Assembly: GCA_905479265.1 (NCBI GenBank)
Contig: CAJQLX010000020.1
Location: forward strand, 11,906 to 75,905
DNA: 64,000 nt
Source: an uncultured Alphaproteobacteria bacterium
GTDB taxonomy: Bacteria; Pseudomonadota; Alphaproteobacteria; UBA7985
Direction of reading: 5' to 3'
This document shows positions 6,135 to 24,853 of the stretch, piece by piece (the stretch's first letter is position 1; each line of letters starts with the position of its first letter). A model generated the notes under the pieces. The model was not told where the DNA came from, ran no database searches, and saw only the letters and a program-made list of their open reading frames with translations. A program made the translations under genes and the position numbers.

Positions 6135-6542
6135 ATGTCCTACCCAATCGAAGAAATTGAGGGTATCGGCCCATCCTACGGCGCCAAACTCAAAACGGCT
6201 GGCATCAAATCGACAACGGCGCTGCTGAAAGCCTGTGCCAAGAAGTCAGGCCGGAAAAAGGTCGCTGAAGACACTGGCATTTCAGAAAAAATGATCCTTG
6301 AGTGGACCAACTTGGCCGATCTGATGCGGATCAAAGGCATCGGCAAGCAGTTCTCCGAGCTGCTCGAAGCTGCTGGCGTGGATACCGTCAAGGAATTGCG
6401 CAACCGCAACGCCGATAACACGGCGGCGAAAATGGCTGAAGTGAACGCGGAAAAGAAGCTGACGCGCTCGGTTCCGGCGGCATCGATGGTTGCAAACTGG
6501 GTTGCTCAAGCCAAAACGATGGACCCGATCATCGAATACTAA
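6135..6542 (+). CDS. DUF4332 domain-containing protein
   Basis: 135 aa with the typical N-terminus (PIEEIEGIGP.Y..KL...GI.T). Followed by a strong terminator. Confidence 0.55.
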   Translation: MSYPIEEIEGIGPSYGAKLKTAGIKSTTALLKACAKKSGRKKVAEDTGISEKMILEWTNLADLMRIKGIGKQFSELLEAAGVDTVKELRNRNADNTAAKMAEVNAEKKLTRSVPAASMVANWVAQAKTMDPIIEY

Positions 6543-6574
6543 GCGCCGCTCAATCGACGCTTCAAAACGTAAGA

Positions 6575-6619
6575 AAACCGCCCTTTGATCGCATTGCCGG
6601 TCAGGGGCGGTTTTTTTTG
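6575..6619. terminator. Bidirectional rho-independent terminator
   Basis: AAACCGCCCT ... AGGGGCGGTTTTTTTTGT: a GC-rich stem with an A-tract upstream and a T8 tract downstream. It lies between a convergent gene pair (DUF4332 on +, DUF853 ATPase on -). Confidence 0.75.
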
Positions 6620-6628
6620 TCTCTGGTC

Positions 6629-8404
6629 TCAGCGCCGACGCCGCTTGGACGATGAACGCCGGCGACGGGTGGAGCCGAACAAGCCTCGCGCGATGGATTT
6701 GCTGAGCTCGCGACCCATCGTCGAGGACATGGAGCGCGCGAAAGACTTCATCGCGGCGTCGCTGATGCTGTCACTGCGGGACGAGCGGCGTTGGGGGCGG
6801 GATGATGAGGAACCGCCGGAGGAGGAAACGCGCCGATTGCCGCCGCCGCTGCCGTAACGAACCCCGCCGCCACCGCTGCGCCGCCCTCGATCCGCTTCGA
6901 AGCGGCGCTGGTCTTCGACATCGCGGGCGTCTTCGTTGGCGAAATCTTCGGCTTCGGCCATGCGCTGTTGCAGGATTTCATAGGCGGAATGGCGGTCGAG
7001 GGTTTCGTCGTAGAGGCCGCCAAGGGGAGATTCGGCCAGAATCGCTTGGCGTTCGGTTGGGGTGATCGGACCCATGCGGCACTGTGGCGGACGGATGAGC
7101 GTCTTTTCGACGACCGACGGCACCCCTTTTTTCTCCAACGTCGAAACCAGCGCTTCGCCAACGCCGAGTTGGGTAATGACGCTTTGGGTATCAAACGCCG
7201 GGTTGGGGCGGAAACTGTCGGCGGCGACGCGCACGGCGCGCTGCTCGGACGGGGTGTAGGCGCGCAGGGCATGTTGGATGCGGTTGCCCAGTTGGGACAG
7301 AACGCGGTCGGGCACGTCTTGGGGGTTTTGGGTGATGAAGTAGAGGCCGACCCCTTTGGACCGGATCAGGCGCACAACCTGCTCAACCTTTTCAATCAAC
7401 CCCGGTTCAGCATCACGAAACAGCAAATGAGCCTCGTCGAAGAAAAACACCAGTTTGGGTTTATCGGTGTCACCGGCTTCGGGGAGTTCTTCGAACAGCT
7501 CGGAGACCAGCCACAGCATAAAAGCGGCGTAGAGCTTGGGCGAGGTCATGAGGGTTTCGGCGCTGAGAATGTTGATCACCCCGCGCCCGGCATCGTCGGT
7601 GCGCATCAAGTCTGCGAGTTTCAGGGCAGGTTCGCCAATAAACGCCTCTGCGCCCTGTCGCGCCAAGGTGAGCAGCGAGCGCTGGATCGCGCCGATGGAT
7701 GCCGTGGAAATCGCGCCATAGGACAAACTCAGTTGCTTGCGGTGCTGTCCCACAAACACCAGCATTTGCCGGAGATCTTTGAAATCCAGCAGGGGCATGC
7801 CTTCTTCATCCGCGACGGCAAAGGCGATGTTCAGGACGCCTTCTTGGGTGGCGTTGAGGTCGAGCATGCGGGAGAGCAGCAGCGGCCCCATATCGGTGAC
7901 GGTTGCCCGCACGGGATGGCCCATCTTGCCGAAAAGATCCCACAGCGCGCTTGGGCTGCCTGCATAATCAAAGTCGCTCAGGCCGAGAATATCGGCGCGT
8001 TCTTCGAGCTTTGGATGCGGTGAACCGGCTTGGCTCAAGCCGCTCACGTCCCCTTTTACATCCGCTACAAAGACCGGAACGCCGGCGGCGGAAAAGGCTT
8101 CGGCCATGATTTGCACCGTGACTGTTTTGCCCGTGCCGGTCGCGCCGGCCACCAAACCGTGACGGTTGGCGTATTTGAGCTTGAGGCCTTGGGCGATACC
8201 GCTGTCTGTACCGCTACCAAGGTAGACCGAACCCTCTGGAACCACCGGGAATTCTCCGTTGAATAATCGCGTTAGGCTTGAGGTAAAGGACGGCTGCGGC
8301 GAGGGCAAGGCGGACGATTGAATTAGGCCGTCAACAGCGCCTTTTGGGCACCAATGCGCCGCTGCCTGTCGAGCGCCATTTGCGTGCTGCTGCGGCTGAG
8401 TCAC
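6629..8404 (-). CDS. HerA-like helicase C-terminal domain / DUF853 (YjgR-like) P-loop ATPase with Arg/Ser/Gly-rich disordered tail
   Basis: ANRHGLVAGATGTGKTVTVQ matches the E. coli YjgR Walker A region (NRHGLITGATGTGKTVTLQ). A Walker B-like FFFDEAH follows. The last ~90 aa are low-complexity (GGGGVRYGSGGGNRR…RRRRSSSKRRRR). Confidence 0.8.
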   Translation of the reverse strand: MTQPQQHANGARQAAAHWCPKGAVDGLIQSSALPSPQPSFTSSLTRLFNGEFPVVPEGSVYLGSGTDSGIAQGLKLKYANRHGLVAGATGTGKTVTVQIMAEAFSAAGVPVFVADVKGDVSGLSQAGSPHPKLEERADILGLSDFDYAGSPSALWDLFGKMGHPVRATVTDMGPLLLSRMLDLNATQEGVLNIAFAVADEEGMPLLDFKDLRQMLVFVGQHRKQLSLSYGAISTASIGAIQRSLLTLARQGAEAFIGEPALKLADLMRTDDAGRGVINILSAETLMTSPKLYAAFMLWLVSELFEELPEAGDTDKPKLVFFFDEAHLLFRDAEPGLIEKVEQVVRLIRSKGVGLYFITQNPQDVPDRVLSQLGNRIQHALRAYTPSEQRAVRVAADSFRPNPAFDTQSVITQLGVGEALVSTLEKKGVPSVVEKTLIRPPQCRMGPITPTERQAILAESPLGGLYDETLDRHSAYEILQQRMAEAEDFANEDARDVEDQRRFEADRGRRSGGGGVRYGSGGGNRRVSSSGGSSSSRPQRRSSRSDSISDAAMKSFARSMSSTMGRELSKSIARGLFGSTRRRRSSSKRRRR

Positions 8405-8501: not shown

Positions 8502-10571
8502 ATGAGAACGACTTTCCGCGCCCTTGTTGGCTTTGTTGTATTGTTACTGGTGACAATCGGACTTGGTTTCGGTGGTTTCCAGATGGTTAAAGGCCGAATG
8601 GATGCCAATAAGTCGTCGGGTGGTCGCGGTGGCGGGTTCTTTGGCGCGCAGGAGCCGACCTATACCGTTGATCTGCTGGCCTTTGAACGGGCGGACTACA
8701 CGCCAACCATCACAGGCTTTGGCTCGATCACCGCAGGGCGAACGGCGGACTTGCGGCCCTTGGTTTCGGGCTTGCTGGCGTCCACCAACGAACGGCTGGT
8801 TGACGGCGCGCTGGTTCGCCAGGGCACCTCGGTGTTCACAATAGACCCCTTTGATTACGACATCGCGGTCAAGGACGCGTCCATCGCTTTGCGGGATGCG
8901 GAGGCGAAGTTGGTGACGGCGCAGTCTGATCTGGCCGTTGAGCAAGCGGCGCTGAAGCTGGCGCAGGATCAACTGGCGCTGGCCGAAGCCGACCTTGTGC
9001 GGCAGCAAAATTTACGGCGCGAGGGCATCATTTCCGCCGCCGCGCTGGGCAACGCGGAGAACGCGACACTGTCCACCCGAGCCAGCGTTGATACTCGCGC
9101 GGCTGTCGTGGCGCGGGCTGAGGCGGCTATTCCCACCGCAGCCTTGGCCGTGGAGCGCGCAGCGTTGTCGCTGGAACGGGCGGAACGGGATTTGAGCAAT
9201 GCGAACGTGACGGCGCCGTTCAGCGGTGTGGTTCAAGACGTGAGCTTTGCGCTGGGGCGGCAGGTTTCAAGCAACGATGTCCTTGCGCGCCTGGTGGATT
9301 TGCAGCAATTGGAGCTGAAATTCCAACTCTCAGACGAGCAGCTGGGCGCGCTGATCGGTATTGGCGGCAATCGACGTGCCTTGCGCGGGCTGCCGGTCTC
9401 GTTGGTATGGGACGTGGGCAGTCAGCGTTTGGTGTACAAGGCAGAAATTGACCGCACAGCCGTCGCGATTTCGGAAAATCAGGGCGGCATCGACGTCTTT
9501 GCTCGCCTGAGCGATATCAACCCGTTGAACATCCCGCCTGTGGGCGCGTTCATGTCCTACAGCTTCCCTGAGCCGACCATCAAGGGCGCGTTCGCCGTTC
9601 CTGCGTTGGCCGTGAGTCCGACCGGGGAAATGATGGCGGTGACGGACGACAAGCGCATCACGACCTTTGACGTCACCATCGAGCGGCGCGTGGGCGATTT
9701 GACGATTGTCAGCGGTGATGCGGTCAAGGAAGGCGAAACCTATGTTGCGCGGCGGTTTATTCAGTTGGGCGAAGGTTCAAAAGTGAACCCCAACCGTCCG
9801 GATGTGCCAGACGATGGCGGTATGGACGCTGCGAGCGCGGGTTCGCCCGGTGGTTTCCCGACCGAAGGGCCGGTTAAGCTGACCGAAGAGCAGATTACGT
9901 GTCTGGTGGATCTGGTCGAAAATTCTGACATGGCCGCAACGCCCAAGGGCTTTATCATTCCGGCGATTGAGTCCGGCACCCTGACCGATCCGGGCCGAAT
10001 GGCGGGCTTGAAAGAGCGCGCTGGGCTGGATCTGGATGGTTGCTTCCCTGCGACTGAACCGGTGACTGACCCGGCGAAGGCGGAACCGGTCGCGGAAATG
10101 AAAGCGGGCGGGTTCCCGACTGAAGGTCCGGTGAAGCTGACCGAAGGGCAGATTACGTGCTTGGTTGATATGGTCGAGAACTCCGACCTGCCCGCGACAC
10201 CAAAGGGCTTCATCATTCCAGCGATTGAGACCGGCACGATTGCGGATCCGGGCCGAATGGCCGGGCTGAAAGAGCGTGCGGGGTTGGATCTGGACAGTTG
10301 CTTCCCAGCCGAAGAAATGGCGATTGTGGCCGAGCCTGCGGTTGAAGAACAGCCCGGAGGCTTCCCCATGGAAGGGCCGGTTAAGCTGACCGAAGAGCAG
10401 ATTACGTGCTTGGTTGATATGGTCGAGAACTCTGACCTGCCCGCGACACCAAAGGGCTTCATCATTCCAGCGATTGAGACCGGTACGATTGCGGATCCGA
10501 GCCGGATGGCGGGCTTGAAGGAGCGGGCGGGGCTTGACCTCGACAGCTGCTTCCCCGGTTCCAAGGCATAG
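8502..10571 (+). CDS. Efflux RND transporter periplasmic adaptor subunit (membrane fusion protein) with three tandem C-terminal Cys-containing repeat domains
   Basis: N-terminal TM anchor, then coiled-coil, lipoyl and beta-barrel-like segments typical of HlyD/AcrA-family adaptors. Immediately upstream of the RND permease, with a 24-bp gap. The C-terminal 240 aa are three ~83-aa repeats. Confidence 0.8.
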   Translation: MRTTFRALVGFVVLLLVTIGLGFGGFQMVKGRMDANKSSGGRGGGFFGAQEPTYTVDLLAFERADYTPTITGFGSITAGRTADLRPLVSGLLASTNERLVDGALVRQGTSVFTIDPFDYDIAVKDASIALRDAEAKLVTAQSDLAVEQAALKLAQDQLALAEADLVRQQNLRREGIISAAALGNAENATLSTRASVDTRAAVVARAEAAIPTAALAVERAALSLERAERDLSNANVTAPFSGVVQDVSFALGRQVSSNDVLARLVDLQQLELKFQLSDEQLGALIGIGGNRRALRGLPVSLVWDVGSQRLVYKAEIDRTAVAISENQGGIDVFARLSDINPLNIPPVGAFMSYSFPEPTIKGAFAVPALAVSPTGEMMAVTDDKRITTFDVTIERRVGDLTIVSGDAVKEGETYVARRFIQLGEGSKVNPNRPDVPDDGGMDAASAGSPGGFPTEGPVKLTEEQITCLVDLVENSDMAATPKGFIIPAIESGTLTDPGRMAGLKERAGLDLDGCFPATEPVTDPAKAEPVAEMKAGGFPTEGPVKLTEGQITCLVDMVENSDLPATPKGFIIPAIETGTIADPGRMAGLKERAGLDLDSCFPAEEMAIVAEPAVEEQPGGFPMEGPVKLTEEQITCLVDMVENSDLPATPKGFIIPAIETGTIADPSRMAGLKERAGLDLDSCFPGSKA
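9849..10571 (+). repeat. Three tandem ~250-nt in-frame repeats inside the adaptor gene (about 9849-10104, 10105-10353, 10354-10571)
   Basis: Protein unit: GGFPxEGPVKLTEEQITCLVDxVENSDxxATPKGFIIPAIExGTxxDPxRMAGLKERAGLDLDxCFP. Units 2 and 3 are nearly identical at the nucleotide level, and unit 1 is slightly diverged. Each unit has two Cys. Confidence 0.85.
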
Positions 10572-10595
10572 ATAGATAGGTAAGGAGCGAGACCC

Positions 10596-13500
10596 ATGGC
10601 TTTACCAACTTACCGTCCCGATCGTCCCGACGACCTGACCGGTGTTTCCGGCGATACCGGCCTTTTCGCCGTATTCGCCAAACACGGTACGGCGGCGAAT
10701 ATTCTGATGATGCTGATGATCGCAGCGGGCATTTATGCCTTTTTCAACCTGCGGACACAGTTCTTCCCTGACTTCGTGCAGGACCGCATTACCGTGCGGG
10801 TCAACTGGACTGACGCGCCAGCGGGTTCGGTGGATGAGGGGATTGTGCAGCTGTTGGAACCCGAATTGCGGTTCCTTGAAGACGTGGAATCTGTCTTTGC
10901 GTCAGCAGCCGATGGCGGCGCGACGATTTCGCTGCTGTTCGATGTTGGGACCAACATGGAGCGGGCGAAGAGTGATGTTCAGTCGGCTGTTGATGCCGTT
11001 GAAAGCAGCCTGCCTGAAGATGCGGGCGATGCTTCAGTCCGGGTTTCTGCGTTCCGTGATCCGGTGTCGTCGATCCTGATCAGCGGGCCTTTGGACGAAA
11101 AAGGGCTAAAGGTGATTGCGCAGCGGATGCGGGATGACCTGCTGGGGCTTGGGCTGCTGGAAGTGAATATTCAGGGCGCGCGGGATCCGCAGATTGAGGT
11201 CGAAGTTGACGAAGTGGCCTTGCGGCGGCTGGGGCTGACCCCGGCGGATGTCTCTAGCGCCATTGCGCGGCGTGCGCAGGATTTGCCAGCGGGGACGCTG
11301 GGCGGCGAACAAGCGGTTCGCACCCTGGGCACAGAAGCGACCGCTGATTCCGTTGCCAGTGCGCAAATTCGGGCGCAGGGGGATGGCACCATCATTCGCG
11401 TATCCGACGTGGCGCGGGTTCGGGAAATCGTGCCGAATACCGGACGCACCATCTATTACCAAGGCCAACCCGCGCTATCGTTAGACATTCGACGCGGCGC
11501 TGATGGGGATTCGATCCGTCAGCAGCAGGTTATTCAGGATTACATCGATGAAATAGCCCCGACCCTGCCAGCCAATGTCACGGTCACAAACTACAACGTC
11601 TTTGCCGATCTGATCCTTGGCCGCGTGCTGCTGCTGCGGGATAACGCGGTGTTTGGCGTGCTGATTGTCCTGGTGTTCTTGTTCCTGTTCCTGAACGTGC
11701 GCACGGCGTTGTGGATTGCCGTGGGCATTCCGGTTTCCATCGCGGCGACACTGGGCGTCATGCTGATGCTGGGTCTGTCAATCAACATGCTGACGCTGTT
11801 TGCGCTGATCCTATCACTGGGGATTATCGTTGATGATGCCATTGTGGTGGGGGAGTACGCCGATTTTCTGCATGAGCAGGGCTATACGCCGTCGCAAGCG
11901 GCCATTATCGGCGCGCAGCGGATGGTTGGACCGGTCTCGGCCGCAGCGGCGACGACGGTTTTGGCCTTTGGCGTGCTGTATTTCTTGCCCGGGCGGTTTG
12001 GTAACTTCACCCAAGATATTGCCGTGACGGTGGTCGCGGTGCTGATTGCCTCGCTGATCGAGTGTTTCTTTGTTCTGCCCGGTCACATGTACCACGCGCT
12101 CAAAGCGCGACAGCGAGGGGAGCGGCGGTTGCGGTCTGGCAATGGGCATCCGACGCCATTTCACGCCGGGATTTCTGCGTTCCGCAAAAACTTTGATGCC
12201 GGTTTTGAGTACGTGCGCACCAAGCCGTTCCGCCGGATTGTGGCGTTCTCGGTCTGGGCGCGCTATCCGCTGCTGACCTTGGTTGCGGTGATCTTTGCCT
12301 ATTCCATCGCCATGGTGATGACGGGCGAGCCGCGCTGGTCGTTCTTTATTCGGCCTGAGAACAATACGGTGAACGTCAACTTAACAATGGTCGAAGGGGC
12401 CACGCGGGCGGACACGCTGGAGCAGATGCAGATGGCTGAAGCCTATGTCCCGGAGCTGATTGCCGACGCGCGGGATAGTGGGTTGGCGACGCTCAAGCGC
12501 AGTCAGAAATCAGCGCTGGAGGGGTCGTGGTATTCCATTCCCAAGCGAGCGTATGACCGCGCCGCCTTGCAGGTCAAAATCGATCAACTCGAAGACCGCA
12601 TTGCCAATGTTCCCCCCGAAGACGACATCACGGTGATGTTCAGCCAAGTCGGTGCACGGGGTGGACGCAGCTTTGGTGGGACAGGAAACACCAACACGGA
12701 TCCTGATCTGCTGGGCAACATGCGGGTTGAGCTGGTCGAACAGGACACGCGGATTTACTCCACGCGCAACCTGTTCGTCGGCTTGTCTGGGATTCCGAAG
12801 CACCCGAAACTCGAAGGCATTGCGTCCCGGCGGTCGTTCAGCGGTGGCGACACGGGCGCACTGTCGATCGCGTTAGTCGGGGGTGAGACCGAGCAGCTCA
12901 AGGCAGCATCCTTGCAGCTGACGTCCTTCCTCAACGGCATCGGCGGGGTTTCTGAGGCTGAAGACGACACCCCCTATGGCACCACACAGTTGGTGGCGCG
13001 CGTCTCGGACCGAGGGGCGGCGCTGGGCTTTGATGCGGGCAGTGTGGGGCAGCAGTTGCGCTCTTGGCTGTCGGGATCCACGGCGGTCAATCTGATCCGC
13101 GATGACGGAGAAATATCGGTCGAGGTCAAGATCAACGAAGCCGCGCAAACGGCGAATTTCCTCGCTGGGCTGGACCTCTATACCCCCACAGGTGCGGCGG
13201 TGAAGCTGAGCCAGGTGGTCGATTTTACCGAAGTGGCCGGCTTTTCGCTGATCCAATCACGCGACGGATCGCGGCGGATTACGGTGCAGGCTGAGCTGGA
13301 TGAAGACGCGGGCAACGTCGGCGATGTCGAAGCGCGCTTGCGCGATATCGGTGCGCTGGGGCTGTTGGAAAGTGACTATGGCGTGTCGGTTCGGTTTGAG
13401 GGCGAGTCAGAGGAGCAGAGCGAGTTCTTTGTTGCCTTTACCCAAGTGCTGCTGATCGCCATCGCGTTGATTTATCTGGTGCTGGCGTGGGTGTTCCAGT

Positions 13501-14045
13501 CGTTCTTCCGGCCTTTGGTGGTGATGTCGATCATCCCGCTGGGCTTTGTGGGCATGGTGCTGGGGCATTTGGTCCACGGGCAGGTGCTGTCGTTCCTGTC
13601 GCTGATTGGCTTTGTCGGGCTGACGGGGATTATCGTCAATGACAGCATCGTGCTGATTGGAACCATCGAACGGCGGGCCAAAGTGCAGTCTGTCCGCTCG
13701 GCGATTTTGGATGGCGCGGCAGACCGGTTGAGGCCGGTGCTGCTGACCTCGCTGACCACCATTGGCGGTCTGACACCGCTGATCTTCGAAACGTCGGTTC
13801 AGGCGCAATTCCTGATCCCGCCGTCGCTGACCATTGTTTATGGTTTGGGGCTGGGGACGGTGGTGGTGCTGATCCTCGCGCCGGCGCTGTTTGCGGTGCA
13901 GCATGACATTGTGGGCGTGCTGCGCTCTGCGGGTGTTATGTCGGGCACGTGGCTGGGACGACGACGGCCTCAATTCGCGCGACCGGTTGCCGCTGAACCC
14001 GCATCTTTGGCCGGGCAAGCGTCGGATGAAGCGGTGGCGTCTTAG
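10596..14045 (+). CDS. Efflux RND transporter permease subunit (AcrB/AcrD/AcrF family)
   Basis: 1149 aa. Two blocks of hydrophobic helices flank large periplasmic loops. Conserved RND TM4-like motif …LSLGIIVDDAIVV… and a second …GIIVNDSIVLI… The length and architecture match HAE1-type permeases. Confidence 0.9.
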   Translation: MALPTYRPDRPDDLTGVSGDTGLFAVFAKHGTAANILMMLMIAAGIYAFFNLRTQFFPDFVQDRITVRVNWTDAPAGSVDEGIVQLLEPELRFLEDVESVFASAADGGATISLLFDVGTNMERAKSDVQSAVDAVESSLPEDAGDASVRVSAFRDPVSSILISGPLDEKGLKVIAQRMRDDLLGLGLLEVNIQGARDPQIEVEVDEVALRRLGLTPADVSSAIARRAQDLPAGTLGGEQAVRTLGTEATADSVASAQIRAQGDGTIIRVSDVARVREIVPNTGRTIYYQGQPALSLDIRRGADGDSIRQQQVIQDYIDEIAPTLPANVTVTNYNVFADLILGRVLLLRDNAVFGVLIVLVFLFLFLNVRTALWIAVGIPVSIAATLGVMLMLGLSINMLTLFALILSLGIIVDDAIVVGEYADFLHEQGYTPSQAAIIGAQRMVGPVSAAAATTVLAFGVLYFLPGRFGNFTQDIAVTVVAVLIASLIECFFVLPGHMYHALKARQRGERRLRSGNGHPTPFHAGISAFRKNFDAGFEYVRTKPFRRIVAFSVWARYPLLTLVAVIFAYSIAMVMTGEPRWSFFIRPENNTVNVNLTMVEGATRADTLEQMQMAEAYVPELIADARDSGLATLKRSQKSALEGSWYSIPKRAYDRAALQVKIDQLEDRIANVPPEDDITVMFSQVGARGGRSFGGTGNTNTDPDLLGNMRVELVEQDTRIYSTRNLFVGLSGIPKHPKLEGIASRRSFSGGDTGALSIALVGGETEQLKAASLQLTSFLNGIGGVSEAEDDTPYGTTQLVARVSDRGAALGFDAGSVGQQLRSWLSGSTAVNLIRDDGEISVEVKINEAAQTANFLAGLDLYTPTGAAVKLSQVVDFTEVAGFSLIQSRDGSRRITVQAELDEDAGNVGDVEARLRDIGALGLLESDYGVSVRFEGESEEQSEFFVAFTQVLLIAIALIYLVLAWVFQSFFRPLVVMSIIPLGFVGMVLGHLVHGQVLSFLSLIGFVGLTGIIVNDSIVLIGTIERRAKVQSVRSAILDGAADRLRPVLLTSLTTIGGLTPLIFETSVQAQFLIPPSLTIVYGLGLGTVVVLILAPALFAVQHDIVGVLRSAGVMSGTWLGRRRPQFARPVAAEPASLAGQASDEAVAS

Positions 14046-14181
14046 GGCGGCGCATTGCTGGTGGCCGGAACACTTTGGTTATGACCACGGCGGCGGTATG
14101 GTGCTAGAAGCCAGCCTATCGCGGTGCTGAAAATCGGCACCTGATTGTTCCTGTTGTTGCCGTTCGGAAAGTGCTTCGTCC

Positions 14182-15060
14182 ATGTTCGACCCTCGCCGTC
14201 ATGCTGTCCGCCCTGATCTTGCCGATAGCCGTTTGGCTGATTTGTTGCCCGAGGATCACCCGGTCGTCGATGGCGCGCTGGAGCAGGTGATTGCGCCCGT
14301 GGTGCCGATCTTTGCGCATCCAAGCGGCACGGCGGAGCGGGCGTCGGAAGCACTGCTGGGTGAGCGGGTGATGGTGTTTGAGGACCGGGATGGGTTCTCG
14401 TGGTGCCAGCTGGAGACCGATGGTTACGTTGGTTACATCCCCACCGCTGCGCTCAGTCCTGATGTCGCGGAGCCTACGCACCGGGTAAGCGCGGTGCGGA
14501 CGTTTGTCTACAGCGATCCAGATTTCAAATCGGTGGTGTCCGCGGCGCTGTTCATGGGCTCGGACGTGGTGGTTTCGGCGACGGACCCCGATGGGTTCTG
14601 CCAGATTGGTGAGCGGGAATGGGTGTTTTCAGGCCATGTGAGCCCTGTGGCTGCGGTGTCAGAAACCGACCCTATGGCTGTTGCTGAACAGTTCCTGCAC
14701 TCGCCCTATCTGTGGGGTGGGCGGTCGTCGCTGGGGCTGGATTCCGCGGCGTTGGTGCAGCGGGCGTTTGCGGCGTGCGGGCGATCTTTGCCGCGTGACA
14801 GTGACCTGCAGGAAAGCGAGCCGGCGGATTGGCTGGATGATCACGATGGCGCGGCGTGGGCGCAGGCGCTGCCGGGCGATCTGCTGTTCTGGCCTGATCA
14901 CGTGGCGCTGGTGTCGGCGCCGGAGACGCTGATCCATGCCAGTGTGCATGCGATGGCGGTGGTGCAGGAGCCTGTGGCGCAAGCGGTCGCGCGGATCGAA
15001 GCTACGGGGATTGGGGCGCCGCGTTTGATTCGTCGGCCAACAGTCCTCAGGGAGTCTTGA
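14182..15060 (+). CDS. NlpC/P60 (C40 peptidase)-like protein with N-terminal SH3b-like region; catalytic Cys apparently replaced by Ser
   Basis: YLWGGRSSLGLDSAALV aligns with the NlpC/P60 signature Y.WGG…G.DCSG.V, but carries Ser-Ala where Cys-Ser is expected. The downstream His (PDHVALV) is retained. Confidence 0.65.
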   Translation: MFDPRRHAVRPDLADSRLADLLPEDHPVVDGALEQVIAPVVPIFAHPSGTAERASEALLGERVMVFEDRDGFSWCQLETDGYVGYIPTAALSPDVAEPTHRVSAVRTFVYSDPDFKSVVSAALFMGSDVVVSATDPDGFCQIGEREWVFSGHVSPVAAVSETDPMAVAEQFLHSPYLWGGRSSLGLDSAALVQRAFAACGRSLPRDSDLQESEPADWLDDHDGAAWAQALPGDLLFWPDHVALVSAPETLIHASVHAMAVVQEPVAQAVARIEATGIGAPRLIRRPTVLRES

Positions 15061-16366: not shown

Positions 16367-16442
16367 TGGTGGGCGATGACAGGCTCGAACTGCCGACCCT
16401 CTCGGTGTAAACGAGATGCTCTACCAACTGAGCTAATCGCCC
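16367..16442 (-). tRNA. tRNA-Val (anticodon TAC), CCA encoded
   Basis: Reverse complement reads GGGCGATTAGCTCAGTTGGTAGAGCATCTCGTTTACACCGAGAGGGTCGGCAGTTCGAGCCTGTCATCGCCCACCA. It has the 7-bp acceptor stem, D-loop AGCTCAGTTGGTAGAGC, anticodon loop TTTACAC, T-arm GGTTCGAGCC, and discriminator A followed by CCA. Confidence 0.9.
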
Positions 16443-16724: not shown

Positions 16725-17585
16725 TTAGTTGCCCATCGCCTGTGCCAGCAAAATTGGCAGCAGTTGCTTGATGATGTCAGAGTTGTCCGCTGCTGCTGGG
16801 ATCGCAGCGTTGGCCGCAGCAGCCTTTGCGGCGGCTTCCTCGGCTTCTTTAGCCAGCTCAGCGCGGAGTTTCTCTTCGATTTCCGCTTCCAAGTCGGCGC
16901 GCTTCTGCGTTTCGTTGGCTTCGGTGATCAGCGAGTCGCCGACCAGAGACGAGCGCAAGATTTCCTGCATGATGTTTTTGACGAGCTTGGAGTGGTTGGC
17001 CAAACGGTCGAGTTCGCGCTTGCGCTGGGATGCGGCGGCGAATTCGGTGTCGAGAACATCAATGGTGCCAATCAGGGATGTAAGCTGATTGGTCAGACCC
17101 GACTCAGACAGCGGTGCCTGAGCGTAATCCGGGGATGGTGCAAGGGCATCAACCATAGAGACAGGGGCAGCTGGTGGTGCCACGGGCGCTACTGCGACGG
17201 GAGCTGCCGCGACGGGCGCAGCTGCGACGGGTGCAGGCGCTGGCGCTGGAGCAGGTGCCGGTGCTGGGGCAGCAGCAACGGAACACGTCAGAAACCGCTG
17301 TGAAGAGTATCCGACAAAGGTTGGGTTGTATGAGTCGTAAATCTCGCACCAGCCAGACTGACACGCGCGGGCATCAACGACATTACCGCGCGGCAAGGTC
17401 GCAACGATGGTGCCGTACAGCGCCGGGGTATCGCGGACGTTCAGGGCTTGCGCGGTGGTGGTCACTTGGTCGCGACAGGACGCAAATGGGTCGCCATAGC
17501 TTTGCGCGGATGCGACGCCGGCGCTTCCAGCTAGCAGTGCGGCAGCGGCCGCAAATGAAAAGACACGGTTCAAAACCAATTTCAT
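16725..17585 (-). CDS. Secreted SH3b-domain protein with Ala-Pro repeat linker and C-terminal coiled-coil (hypothetical)
   Basis: Signal peptide MKLVLNRVFSFAAAAALLAGSAGVASA. SH3b-like segment (LNVRDTPALYGTIVATLPRGNVVDARACQSGWCEIYD). (AP)7 plus AAAPVA repeats. Charged heptad region EAEIEEKLRAELAKEAEEAAAKA. Confidence 0.6.
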   Translation of the reverse strand: MKLVLNRVFSFAAAAALLAGSAGVASAQSYGDPFASCRDQVTTTAQALNVRDTPALYGTIVATLPRGNVVDARACQSGWCEIYDSYNPTFVGYSSQRFLTCSVAAAPAPAPAPAPAPAPVAAAPVAAAPVAVAPVAPPAAPVSMVDALAPSPDYAQAPLSESGLTNQLTSLIGTIDVLDTEFAAASQRKRELDRLANHSKLVKNIMQEILRSSLVGDSLITEANETQKRADLEAEIEEKLRAELAKEAEEAAAKAAAANAAIPAAADNSDIIKQLLPILLAQAMGN

Positions 17586-18718: not shown

Positions 18719-19972
18719 TTAGCTGAGGATGGTTTCCGCTGTGAACGACCCGCCAACAGCTTGGACCGGGTCCAGTCCCCACAAGTCCTGAACAATCCCG
18801 GCATAGACAGCGCGGAAATCGGTGGTGTGCACCATGTCGTCTTCGACCAGATCCTCCCGCGCCAAAGAAGGCCGCGCCCCACCAAAGCCGCCAGCGACTT
18901 TTCCGCCAGCGAGCAGGACCGGGGCAGCGGTGCCGTGGTCCGTGCCTTCGGAGCCGTTTTCGTGGAAGCGCCGGCCAAACTCGCTGTAGGTCATGAGCGT
19001 GACGTTGTTCCAGACGCCGATCTCTCGCGCGGCGCGTTCGAACGCGGCCATTGCTGTATCGAGTTCCTGGAGCAAAAACGCGTGTTCTTCGGCTTGATAG
19101 GCGTGGGTATCGAAGCCGCCGTGGGCGACCTTCATCACCGGTGTGGTCACGCCCGCGTCGAGCAACTGCAGCGCCGCGGCGAGTTGGAGGCCAAGCGCGC
19201 TGTCCGGCATGCTGAAGTCCCGGTTGGCGGCTTGGCGCAGCTTGCGTTCCAGCAGGTCGGCGGTGCCAACGGCGTTGGAGTGAACACTCAGCAAGTGGTC
19301 GAGGGCCGCGTTTCCGCCGCTGGGTCGTACGGAGTGGCCGCCGTCCATCATCATGGTGGCGGCGCCCATGGTGCCATCATCGTAGCCGCCCAGAACTCCA
19401 GCGGTGCGCAGGGCTTCGGCTTGGTCGAAAAATTCTTCGATTTCCTCCAGCCCGGTGAAGCGCCCCGGTCCGCGCAACGGCCCCATCTCTCCGCCCAAAC
19501 CAATACCGTCGGCATCGAGGCCGAGGGTGCTTTGGTTCATCAGCCGAGAAACCCAGCCTTGGGTTTCCTTGGTGTCTGCGCCAAGGCCAGCGTTCCAGAT
19601 TTCGATGGAGCGGAAGTGGCTGCGGTTGGGGTTGGGATAACCGACGCCCTCGATCAAGCGGACTTGGCCGCGTTCCCACCCTTTGGCGAGCCCGGACAAG
19701 CTGGGGTGCAGCCCCATATCACCGCCCAGCTGCAGCACGTCTCGCCCCGACAGCGCAAGGGTTGGGCGGACGCGTTGGTAGTTGTCGTCGGCGTAGGGAA
19801 TGAGGGTGTTCAGACCATCGTTGCCGCCTTCCAGTTCAATCAGAATGAGCGTGTGGTCCTTGCCCAACCCAGCCCCGGCTGCCCAAGCAGGCGCGGTGGT
19901 CAGCGGCAAAGAGAGCGCGGATGCGCCCATCAAGCGAAGCCAGTTGCGGCGGTTCATCGAAAGCGTTGTCAT
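18719..19972 (-). CDS. DUF1501 domain-containing protein (sulfatase/alkaline-phosphatase-like), Tat-secreted
   Basis: Twin-arginine signal MNRRNWLRLMGASALSLP…AWA. 417 aa. The DUF1501 family is typically paired with DUF1800. Confidence 0.75.
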   Translation of the reverse strand: MTTLSMNRRNWLRLMGASALSLPLTTAPAWAAGAGLGKDHTLILIELEGGNDGLNTLIPYADDNYQRVRPTLALSGRDVLQLGGDMGLHPSLSGLAKGWERGQVRLIEGVGYPNPNRSHFRSIEIWNAGLGADTKETQGWVSRLMNQSTLGLDADGIGLGGEMGPLRGPGRFTGLEEIEEFFDQAEALRTAGVLGGYDDGTMGAATMMMDGGHSVRPSGGNAALDHLLSVHSNAVGTADLLERKLRQAANRDFSMPDSALGLQLAAALQLLDAGVTTPVMKVAHGGFDTHAYQAEEHAFLLQELDTAMAAFERAAREIGVWNNVTLMTYSEFGRRFHENGSEGTDHGTAAPVLLAGGKVAGGFGGARPSLAREDLVEDDMVHTTDFRAVYAGIVQDLWGLDPVQAVGGSFTAETILS

Positions 19973-20027
19973 GGTTCGGTTCCTTTCACGGATCAGCGTG
20001 CGGTGAAGTGCGGGGTGTGGTGGCGGG

Positions 20028-22217
20028 CTATTTGAGCTGAAAGCGCGGGTCGAGGACGAGCGAGATCAGCAAGTCGTCAAGCCCCTCAACCGCGCGATCG
20101 TTGGTCGCCAGCGCCGGATTGCGCACGGGCAGAAGCATGCTTTCCAGTCCCGCCGAGGTCTGCATCGGTGCGGGCAAAGCCGCCAGCCACTGGTCAGGGT
20201 CGGCAAAGGTTTCCGTCAGGCGCGACTGATAGAGCGCGGCGCGCTGCTCAAAGATTGTGTCGTAGAGGGTGCCAAACAGCGCATCGATGGCTTCGTCATC
20301 ATCGCTGCGCGGGGCAACCGCTGCGCCGATGGCCATTTCGACGATCTGTGGCGGCAGGCCCGCTGCGCCCTTGTGGCTGATGCCGCGCTCGACATCGGGC
20401 AGCTTTGGCATGGTGCGCGACAGCATGCCTGAATGATTAAAGGCATTGGCGATCCGTTTGCTGGTCTTTTTCAACGCGTCAAAGGTCGGCATGTCCAAGC
20501 CTTCTTCTGCTGCTTCAGCTGCGATATAGGACCACACTTGGTCGTCCTTGGTGTCGTCGATCAGGGTCGGGACGGCCTTGATGAGGGCGGCGATCAAGTC
20601 GCGTTCGTCCGCGCTCAACCGGCCAACACCGGGGCTGGATTCCCAAGGGTTCAGCCAGAACTCACGGACAGAATTGCCGTCTTCATCCGTTTCCGGTGCG
20701 ACGCGCTCGATCAGCCGAGACAGCGGGCATTCGGTGCCGCAGCCTTCTTGCTCAATGCCAAAGTAAACGTCACGATCCCCGTCGCCTTCGCCGATCCCGA
20801 CAAAGAAAGCGAGGCTGTGGTAGGTCTGGCCCTTGAAGCCAACATCATAGAGCGACAGGGCAAGGCCGGTTTCCTTCCAGTCGTCTTCCACGGACTTCCA
20901 CGCCCAATCCAGACCGACAAGGCCAATGCGCAAGCCTTGGCTCTCCGGCTTCATCGCCGCTTGGTTGGCGTCGGGCGCGTCATAGGGCTCGAAGCGGTCG
21001 TAGATCCACGTGTTCATCATCTCTTGCAACGAGGCTGTGCGCTGGGCGAGGCTGGCATCGGTGATCCACGCTGCGCCTTCTTGCCACCCGGCAACATTGG
21101 GCGGCATGAACAGCGTTTGACCGGCGTCCAGTGTCAAATCGTGCAGCTCCATCGCTTCGGTGGGGGTGCTGCCAAAGGTGCGGTTGAAGCCGATGTAAAG
21201 CTCCCACGGGGACTTAACCAGCGTGCCTCGGTTGGCTTGGTCCCAGAAGCCGGGCGTGCTGAGAACGGCTCGGTAGAGCGTCGGCAGATCCCAGTCCGAC
21301 GCCTTCCACTGCGCGGTAATATCGGCAACCTGCGCGGCGTCCGGGGTGTCAGAGATAAAGAAGCGCCACATTTTCTCAACGATATAGGGGCCAAAGCTCG
21401 GCTGGCTGAGGATGAGGTCCGGCAGGTCATTGGCGCTGAAATACGCCGTCGCGCCAAAGATGGTTTTCTGGCCCTTGTCGTGCGCAGAACGTTGGAACAT
21501 GAACTGGCCGGTGGAGTCCTCCAAGCTGTTCCCGGTCAGCGCGCGGGAGACTTCGCGGATGTCTTGCTCCGTATAGCCGCGCCCTTGACCCAGGGTGAAC
21601 AGCTCCAGCAGCTCGCGACCAAGGTTCTCGTTGGGTGCTTCGGCGGTGTTTTCCACGTTGTTCAAATAGACCAGCATCGCCGGATCCCGCAGCTGTGCCG
21701 CCAGCATATCTCGGAACGAGCCACCCATGGTGTCGCGCAGCGTCTGGAACTTCTGCGCGGTCAAGTGCGCGTCTTCATGGTTTTCGAACGACGTGACGAA
21801 GTGGTCCATCCAGAACATGGTCATTTGCTCTTTGAACGGGCTTTCTGTGTTCGTCGCCTCGACCATCCACCATGTGCTCAGATCCACGAGGTTGATGTAC
21901 TGCGCGCCCACGGCCAGCTCGCCCAAGGTGTCGTTCTTGCCAAAGAGGAACTCAATCGGTGCGCGCCATTGCTGGGTGAACCCTGGCGCAGGCTGGGTAT
22001 CCAGCGCATTGATGTCGTCGAGGATGCTCTCGATCAAGGCGGCACGGGTTTGTCCGGTGAAGGTGCGCAGGTCGCTAGGCGACGCGGCGAAGCTGGTGCG
22101 GGTCAGCGCGTGGCGCACGTCTTCGGGGCTTAGCGCGTCAGCATGTGCGCGCACCGTGGGGGCAAGGGCGCAGAGGGCAGCGCTGGCTGCGAGCAAGGCA
22201 CGGTTCAGGGTTTTCAT
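20028..22217 (-). CDS. DUF1800 domain-containing protein, Sec-secreted
   Basis: 729 aa. N-terminal signal peptide MKTLNRALLAASAALCALAPTVRAHA. Length and conserved segments are characteristic of DUF1800 proteins that precede DUF1501 partners. 55-bp gap to DUF1501. Confidence 0.75.
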   Translation of the reverse strand: MKTLNRALLAASAALCALAPTVRAHADALSPEDVRHALTRTSFAASPSDLRTFTGQTRAALIESILDDINALDTQPAPGFTQQWRAPIEFLFGKNDTLGELAVGAQYINLVDLSTWWMVEATNTESPFKEQMTMFWMDHFVTSFENHEDAHLTAQKFQTLRDTMGGSFRDMLAAQLRDPAMLVYLNNVENTAEAPNENLGRELLELFTLGQGRGYTEQDIREVSRALTGNSLEDSTGQFMFQRSAHDKGQKTIFGATAYFSANDLPDLILSQPSFGPYIVEKMWRFFISDTPDAAQVADITAQWKASDWDLPTLYRAVLSTPGFWDQANRGTLVKSPWELYIGFNRTFGSTPTEAMELHDLTLDAGQTLFMPPNVAGWQEGAAWITDASLAQRTASLQEMMNTWIYDRFEPYDAPDANQAAMKPESQGLRIGLVGLDWAWKSVEDDWKETGLALSLYDVGFKGQTYHSLAFFVGIGEGDGDRDVYFGIEQEGCGTECPLSRLIERVAPETDEDGNSVREFWLNPWESSPGVGRLSADERDLIAALIKAVPTLIDDTKDDQVWSYIAAEAAEEGLDMPTFDALKKTSKRIANAFNHSGMLSRTMPKLPDVERGISHKGAAGLPPQIVEMAIGAAVAPRSDDDEAIDALFGTLYDTIFEQRAALYQSRLTETFADPDQWLAALPAPMQTSAGLESMLLPVRNPALATNDRAVEGLDDLLISLVLDPRFQLK

Positions 22218-24776: not shown

Positions 24777-24853
24777 TGGTCGGGCTGGCGGGGTTCGAAC
24801 CCGCGACCTCTCGTCCCCCAGACGAACGCGCTACCAGGCTGCGCTACAGCCCG
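24777..24853 (-). tRNA. tRNA-Pro (anticodon GGG), CCA encoded
   Basis: Reverse complement reads CGGGCTGTAGCGCAGCCTGGTAGCGCGTTCGTCTGGGGGACGAGAGGTCGCGGGTTCGAACCCCGCCAGCCCGACCA. D-arm GCGCAGCCTGGTAGCGC; anticodon stem TTCGT/ACGAG with loop CTGGGGG; T-arm GGTTCGAACC. Confidence 0.85.

Follow-up and report, generated by a model that had tools for sequence, protein, structure and literature searches.

A tail of three predicted helical modules at the C-terminus of an RND efflux adaptor from an uncultured marine alphaproteobacterium

Periplasmic adaptors of efflux systems of the resistance-nodulation-division (RND), ABC and MFS types, such as AcrA, MexA, MacA and EmrA, are built from an alpha-hairpin and lipoyl, beta-barrel and membrane-proximal domains, and the solved structures hold nothing past the membrane-proximal domain. 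The adaptor studied here is encoded in a stretch of 64,000 nucleotides (nt) of contig CAJQLX010000020.1 (assembly GCA_905479265.1, positions 11,906 to 75,905 of the forward strand), hereafter called the window. It has the same four domains, and its canonical body ends near residue 431, yet it continues for some 258 residues that are predicted to form three helical modules joined by linkers. What are these modules, is the repeat array that encodes them genuine, and what might it do for the pump?

The C-terminal tail of the adaptor

The two genes of the pump and the parts of the tail are as follows (window positions; the linkers are marked by predicted local distance difference test values, pLDDT, below 50 in an AlphaFold2 model):

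8502 to 10571, plus strand: adaptor gene, encoding an RND membrane fusion protein of 689 residues with a C-terminal three-unit tail (open reading frame, TIGR01730, PF13437 HlyD_3)
9801 to 9848, plus strand: linker from the membrane-proximal domain to unit 1, residues 434-449 (pLDDT below 50 for 434-450)
9849 to 10049, plus strand: unit 1, residues 450-516, with Cys467 and Cys514, predicted three-helix bundle (AlphaFold2 and repeat search)
10050 to 10106, plus strand: linker 1, ATEPVTDPAKAEPVAEMKA, Ala/Pro/Glu-rich (pLDDT below 50 for 518-536)
10107 to 10307, plus strand: unit 2, residues 536-602, with Cys553 and Cys600 (repeat search and single-unit AlphaFold2 model)
10308 to 10355, plus strand: linker 2, AEEMAIVAEPAVEEQP (pLDDT below 50 for 605-618)
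10356 to 10556, plus strand: unit 3, residues 619-685, with Cys636 and Cys683, followed by GSKA and the stop codon (repeat search and AlphaFold2)
10596 to 14045, plus strand: RND permease gene, 1149 residues (PF00873, E 1.2e-126)

A preliminary description of this locus had noted three tandem two-cysteine units past the membrane-proximal domain, with six cysteines in total, and this is confirmed by the sequence and by repeat searches: Tandem Repeats Finder places a single array at 9845-10555 (2.8 copies with a period of 249, score 879), and a second search located three copies of 200 nt at 9849, 10107 and 10356, spaced by 258 and 249 nt. The repeat length of about 83 residues given there holds for a core together with its linker, the folded core itself being 67 residues long. 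The units follow the pattern GGFPxEGPVKLTExQITCLVDxVENSD...GLDLDxCFP and are separated by disordered Ala/Pro/Glu linkers of 14-19 residues; the last unit ends four residues before the C-terminus, and the six tail cysteines (467, 514, 553, 600, 636 and 683) are all the cysteines of the adaptor. The full-length AlphaFold2 model (mean pLDDT 81) has the appearance of beads on a string, with three separate bundles and with linkers at pLDDT below 50. A single unit, modelled from an alignment of 30 sequences with a mean pLDDT of 90 and a predicted template modelling score of 0.76, takes the form of a bundle of three helices (13-24, 30-41 and 48-58), after which comes a short fourth one (62-65), and the corresponding helices of unit 1 in the adaptor model span residues 462-473, 479-490, 497-507 and 511-514. 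As modelled, the tail is shown to be a chain of helical modules, each strongly conserved and folding on its own, that flexible linkers string together at the membrane-proximal end of the adaptor.

The conservation of the individual units can be read from comparisons within the array. Between units 2 and 3, 23 of the 201 nt are different (88.6% identity); 18 codons are changed synonymously and 3 non-synonymously, for a synonymous divergence (dS) of 0.53 and a ratio of non-synonymous to synonymous divergence (dN/dS) of 0.06; unit 1 shares 82-83% DNA identity with units 2 and 3, at a dS of 0.9-1.0 and a dN/dS of 0.07. Such values indicate strong purifying selection on each copy.

In line with the preliminary description, which recognized no adaptor module in it, the unit matches no known adaptor, carbohydrate-binding or other curated domain. 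There was no match at E<=1 in Pfam or NCBIfam, PDB sequences searched by profile gave nothing below E 0.06, the solved adaptors matched by Foldseek all leave the tail uncovered, and no match was obtained to peptidoglycan- or carbohydrate-binding profiles or folds (LysM, PG_binding, SH3b, OmpA-like, carbohydrate-binding modules). The LTXXQ/CpxP-Spy family (PF07813) gave no match to the window units at E<=1 and matched only 1 of 35 diverse members of the unit's own family, at E 0.049; the likeness of 'LTEEQ' to that family is only that of a short motif. Among the closest known folds are generic small three-helix bundles, such as the X domain of paramyxovirus phosphoproteins and the domains of staphylococcal protein A.

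Related modules do exist in sequence collections. When a profile of the units was run against a set of 1.84 billion representative proteins, 179 matched at E<=1e-3 and 25 at E<=1e-10. In the subset of relatives examined, 59 proteins of at least 400 residues bear the domain, of which 55 also match the adaptor body; the last domain ends 0-7 residues from the C-terminus in nearly all of them, and the domain is present once in 29, twice in 19 and three times in 11 of the 59. Most of the short profile matches are adaptor fragments, recognizable by the preceding ...LGAGIRVRP... end of the membrane-proximal domain, three others (P0050, P0067 and P0139) seem to come from chimeric or wrongly called genes, and no convincing free-standing periplasmic homologue was found among the matches. 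The window units match in three domains (exact protein P0011) a family profile (alignments A1/A4) that was itself built from sequences including them.

The majority form of the module lacks cysteines and has the consensus V.L[TD]PERRA.LIAFVE.N.RMP..VK.RLL.QL....VP...VERLE.RMGG, with which the protein ends. Its members (e.g. P0033 of an Octadecabacter metagenome-assembled genome (MAG), P0064, P0038 and P0049) are homologous to the window units with profile E-values down to 1e-19, likewise sit after the membrane-proximal domain of an adaptor in a two-gene RND operon, and align with the window units by sequence across the three-helix region, with L11, L19, V23, P29, K33, L40, R57 and G59 conserved. 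They have no Pfam, NCBIfam or PDB entry, and no Pfam domain covers the module region in family members. In contrast to the window units, they usually occur in one copy, end at RMGG without the xDLDSCFP extension, and keep R35 and R53, whereas the window clade has gained this C-terminal extension and both cysteines and has F and G in place of the two family-conserved arginines. Besides the core hydrophobic positions, the family as a whole conserves the charged residues E14, R15/R16, E24, K33, R35, R53, E55 and R57, it has no cluster of His, Met or Trp, and its single-copy members carry the module on a short linker on the order of 10-25 residues. As judged from sequence, the module is an undescribed and rare family that occurs almost only at the extreme C-terminus of related adaptors, and the window module is a clade-specific, cysteine-bearing and amplified version of it. 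The module, which the preliminary description took for a possible cargo-, peptidoglycan- or partner-binding module grafted onto an efflux pump, is not unique to this gene, as the family is found on related adaptors.

What is new here is the domain family together with its amplification, whereas the type of pump that bears it is a known one. Full-text literature searches found no paper describing the module, and neither of two adaptor reviews (PMC4446572; PMC13328181, 2026) contains such a module, the 2026 review mentioning no C-terminal extension at all. Adaptors are increasingly seen as active parts of the pump, and accessory domains have been documented almost only for metal pumps, at the N-terminus of CusB and at the C-terminus of SilB. 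The present family adds a separate adaptor-specific accessory module, which pumps of a marine alphaproteobacterial lineage carry one to three times.

Cysteine pairs and the possible role of the units

Of the two cysteines of the window clade, at profile positions 18 and 65, 40 units of the family have both, 161 have neither, and 2 have just one; the second is missing only in frameshift-disrupted fragments such as P0007 and P0010, and the clade's 40 complete units keep both without exception. Cysteine-less members end at RMGG and have no extension that could bear the second cysteine. Because of this co-occurrence, the periplasmic compartment, and the joint gain of extension and cysteines, it is probable that each unit holds a structural disulfide that ties the C-terminal extension to helix 1. 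Such a bond would stabilize the fold and fix the point at which the next linker leaves the unit.

As the dN/dS of 0.06 applies across the whole unit, the units are very likely binding modules and not spacers. We favor a role as tethered, multivalent protein-docking modules near the inner-membrane side of the assembled pump, with up to 18 units per complex if six adaptors surround one permease trimer. Their most likely partner would be the periplasmic surface of their own permease or of neighboring adaptors, and docking would then stabilize or regulate pump assembly. Docking is preferred over cargo capture because the conserved polar residues are Arg, Lys and Glu and not sets of metal or aromatic ligands. 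The short linkers of single-copy relatives suggest that the ancestral target was probably near the membrane-proximal domain and thus close to the pump, and the absence of a conserved third gene beside the gene pair across four clades is also in line with docking within the pump. We tentatively put the probability of docking on the permease or on neighboring adaptors at roughly 0.4. A partner, if found, would reveal a new way of stabilizing or regulating pump assembly, or a new route of substrate delivery.

Several points weigh against this interpretation. A single docking site does not obviously call for three separately conserved copies, which would agree no less well with multivalent or cargo binding; that two or three conserved copies should be needed is where the docking model is weakest and what speaks most for a multivalent or swinging-arm role. 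The disulfide, in turn, is deduced only from co-occurrence and compartment, the compartment being taken from the adaptor topology, and the co-occurrence is confined to one clade and is thus not phylogenetically independent.

What competes best with docking, though it is doubtful, is that the units are swinging arms that bind the pump substrate or its carrier and pass it to the permease entrance. An accessory domain at the C-terminus of an RND adaptor is also found in SilB of Cupriavidus metallidurans, which ends in a CusF-like metallochaperone domain (PMC4446572, reviewing Bersch et al. 2011), and this chaperone fusion, a precedent for cargo capture, is the sole documented C-terminal accessory domain of an adaptor that we found (PMC4446572). 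Several copies on flexible Ala/Pro-rich linkers, each under purifying selection, would also suit capture and delivery better than docking at a single site. One is reminded here of the tandem lipoyl domains in the E2 component of Escherichia coli pyruvate dehydrogenase. The likeness to SilB is, however, one of position, as SilB has a single metal-binding beta-barrel that also exists as the free protein CusF, whereas the window adaptor has three predicted three-helix bundles without a metal-ligand motif. A CusF-like nature of the unit was specifically considered and finds no basis: it is all-alpha in the model, has no Pfam match, and shows no conserved Met/His/Trp ligand set, its conserved polar residues being Arg, Lys and Glu. 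Furthermore, a convincing stand-alone periplasmic homologue was not encountered, the short matches being adaptor fragments.

In a more specific version, a disulfide-stapled chain of swinging arms would capture one particular cargo or partner in the periplasm and present it to the permease, and a clade-specific insertion in the permease might be the docking site:

12447 to 12620, plus strand: insertion of about 40 residues within permease residues 618-675, in the second periplasmic loop (alignment of five permeases)

This insertion is present in the window and in L007 and absent from the more distant L013, L021 and L022, and it co-occurs with the cysteine-bearing units, in a comparison that is confounded by phylogeny and covers five sequences. 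We consider this version unlikely; if true, it would constitute a mechanism of substrate delivery or regulation that has not been described for RND pumps outside the CusF/SilB metal case.

A third idea, to which we give little credence, is that the units fasten the pump to the cell wall by binding peptidoglycan or a component of the outer membrane. Wall-binding proteins typically carry tandem small modules on Pro/Ala-rich linkers, and the three linkers and three domains, as estimated from linker lengths, could span more than 200 Å when fully extended. The downstream genes of relatives code for murein-peptide peptidases, an M19 dipeptidase and an SH3+NlpC/P60 protein. The units nevertheless lack similarity to LysM, PG_binding, SH3b, OmpA-like or carbohydrate-binding families, most members of the module family have one unit on a short linker that we estimate to be unable to reach the wall, and the peptidase of the window (14182-15060) has no signal peptide by reading and is presumably cytoplasmic.

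Similarly improbable is that the cysteine pairs are functional thiols, either metal-binding or redox-sensing, in place of structural disulfides. The invariance of both cysteines in the clade's complete units and the acidic D-x-D motif next to the second one would agree with this, but the two cysteines are 47 residues apart with no CxxC-type motif, periplasmic cysteine pairs are normally oxidized, the 161 cysteine-less units of the family work without them, and the permease scores 159 bits against the heavy-metal RND family TIGR00914, for which the cut-off is 701.

The array in other contigs and in orthologues

The array is neither an assembly artefact nor a recent duplication. The exact 689-residue protein falls into a public-collection cluster of 26 sequences, and at least 24 independent contigs, between 10 kb and 1 Mb long and from various samples and assemblers, encode it. 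Six contigs were compared with the window and differ from it by 3-7 substitutions each, which are all synonymous because the protein is identical. Orthologues carry two or three units: at 60-92% identity, they have either 680-691 residues with three units or 601-615 residues with two. A pilon-polished contig of 700 kb (L010), which is probably a long-read contig, carries a three-unit array equal in length to that of the window. An assembly expansion or very recent duplication, whose copies would have no separate function, is thus practically excluded: repeats of this kind do break short-read assemblies, as evidenced by an N gap inside the array in L001 (about 7055-7400) and by two MAGs in which one contig ends and another begins inside the array (L005/L011; L008/L012), but the copies of the window differ at 11-18% of their nt, mostly at synonymous sites, with dS between 0.5 and 1.0, and the recurrence of the three-unit gene across assemblers with synonymous single-nucleotide polymorphisms (SNPs), as well as the retention of two or three units in divergent orthologues, speak against it.

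The preliminary description had proposed just such an artefact or recent duplication, since units 2 and 3 were thought to be almost identical in DNA. At 88.6% identity they are not, and only one tract is near-identical, which probably gave rise to the impression:

10148 to 10234, plus strand: probable gene-conversion tract in unit 2, compared with 10397-10483 in unit 3 (1 mismatch in 87 nt)

Along these two units the differences fall in clusters (permutation test, p ~2e-4, about 2 in 10,000), and gene conversion is the probable origin of the tract. The copies of the window clade have, by this comparison, probably been partly homogenized by gene conversion. In orthologues, two types of unit can be distinguished. 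A divergent first unit of ancestral type (e.g. GGLPSEGPVNLTDEQKTCMATLIADLPDRPKERLQGAIESGVIENPERLKGMQERFDLDIDSCFP) is present in L003, L006, L007 and L010 and forms its own clade by position, and units of a 'PKGFIIPA' type fill the remaining positions, and all three in the window lineage, and tend to fall together by genome and not by position. In L007, units 2 and 3 share 97% identity, against 91% for the corresponding units of the closely related L010. The grouping pattern indicates concerted evolution or repeated local duplication, with a signal that is strong where units 2 and 3 are concerned but modest in unit 1, whose grouping by genome rests on a small difference in identity, 0.82-0.83 within against 0.79-0.80 between genomes.

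The difficulty of assembling the repeat has consequences for public databases, in which it yields false 'small proteins' and truncated adaptors. The stand-alone small homologues P0001-P0010 had to be rejected on this ground, as they are adaptor fragments made by gaps, breaks and frameshifts in the repeat, and a close relative that seemed to lack the tail (P0032) is a frameshift artefact with the unit present in another frame. The repeat region is also linked to frameshift-truncated adaptors in long-read assemblies (L021, 7200-7500), and in L001 the gene caller annotated an opposite-strand open reading frame over the adaptor body (6183-7142), replacing the gapped adaptor gene. A minus-strand open reading frame across the tail of the window (9761-10597, 278 residues) was likewise rejected as a real gene: the population SNPs are all synonymous in the plus frame, and this frame shows low dN/dS between units and continues from the adaptor body in all orthologues.

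The pump, its operon and neighboring genes

The remaining features of the operon are:

8505 to 8615, plus strand: N-terminal helix, residues 2-38, including the predicted membrane anchor (AlphaFold2 secondary structure)
8661 to 9794, plus strand: canonical adaptor body, residues 54-431, with lipoyl, beta-barrel and membrane-proximal domains and a long alpha-hairpin (AlphaFold2, NCBIfam, Pfam and fold matches)
10582 to 10587, plus strand: AAGGAG ribosome-binding site, 8 nt 5' of the permease ATG (sequence reading)
14123 to 14141, plus strand: terminator-like hairpin of 8 pairs with a T-rich tail, 3' of the permease stop codon (consensus match)

The assignment as an RND adaptor/permease pair made in the preliminary description is borne out by an adaptor score above the TIGR01730 cut-off and a permease match to PF00873 at E 1e-126. 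For the adaptor, the family score (TIGR01730 RND_mfp, 116.4 bits where the cut-off is 94.9, residues 202-429 being the best stretch), the four-domain fold and the co-oriented transporter gene agree, and its model matches AcrA, MexA, MacA and EmrA with Foldseek E-values of 1e-24 to 1e-17 over about 390-420 columns. Its anchor in the membrane is a helix and not a lipid, and its sequence identity to solved adaptors is only about 20%. The two hairpin helices span residues 117-173 and 179-232 in the model, i.e. 54-57 residues each, a length that we take to be nearer to MacA than to AcrA. Residues 39-49, past the membrane helix, are modelled with pLDDT below 50. A Gly/Arg-rich GGRGGGFFG segment lies here (residues 40-48, 8619-8645); it is invariant in 12 of 12 clade members, the model shows it as disordered (pLDDT ~40), and the adaptor sequences of more distant relatives that were inspected do not contain it.

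The permease matches PF00873 ACR_tran in two stretches with 424 bits (cut-off 28), and its nearest solved structures are HAE1-type pumps (E ~1e-49). It remains below every NCBIfam subfamily cut-off, with a best HAE1 score (NF033617/NF000282/TIGR00915) of 370.9 against 1250 and a score of 159.4 against 701 for heavy-metal pumps of the HME CusA/CzcA type (TIGR00914), and its substrate class is therefore not assignable. The preliminary description had pointed to the length of the permease, which is indeed 1149 residues, and this is a trait of the whole RND clade and nothing special to the tail: permeases of relatives have 1117-1147 residues. A link between permease length and tail was rejected, since the tail-less P0034 is paired with a permease of 1147 residues.

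With a gap of only 24 nt, adaptor and permease genes form one operon, and the terminator-like hairpin may be its end, although such sites are no more numerous across the region than in shuffled sequence. The pairing holds in every related locus examined, and this is a conserved two-gene RND efflux operon of an uncultured marine alphaproteobacterium. Other uncultured Alphaproteobacteria of marine origin are the source of the related loci, with MAG labels 'Alphaproteobacteria bacterium', 'Geminicoccus sp.' and 'Rhodospirillaceae bacterium', and some of the contigs stem from TARA ocean samples. Besides the gene pair itself, the four clades examined have no neighbor gene in common, and an outer-membrane factor gene of the TolC/OprM type is not found beside the operon in the window or in any of these clades, nor among ten larger open reading frames elsewhere in the window. 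The long adaptor hairpin is compatible with tip-to-tip docking on an outer-membrane factor.

Downstream of the permease, the SH3+NlpC/P60 peptidase of the window (14182-15060, plus strand) reads GLDSAALV where its orthologues in L001 (11184-13127) and L002 (8797-10739) read GLDCSALV, so that the expected catalytic cysteine is replaced by serine. The M19 dipeptidase gene, which lies between the permease and NlpC/P60 genes in L001 and L002 and in L001 starts 2 nt past the permease stop codon, is absent from the window. Judged by these sequences, the murein-peptide peptidase pair may be decaying in the window lineage. In an Octadecabacter-type locus, a gene for a DsbD_N-domain protein adjoins the pump (L013, 12812-13612, minus strand); the unit of that adaptor is cysteine-less, and the neighborhood is probably a coincidence.

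Upstream of the adaptor gene, a HerA-like/DUF853 ATPase gene (6629-8404, minus strand) encodes a long Gly/Ser/Arg-rich C-terminal tail of low complexity, its open reading frame comprising 591 residues in the window versus 538 in the gene called in sister contigs. Further along the window lie tRNA-Val (16367-16442) and tRNA-Pro (24777-24853) genes, an adjacent DUF1501/DUF1800 gene pair (18719-22217), and a gene for an SH3-domain protein with an (AP)n-rich linker (16725-17585), all on the minus strand.

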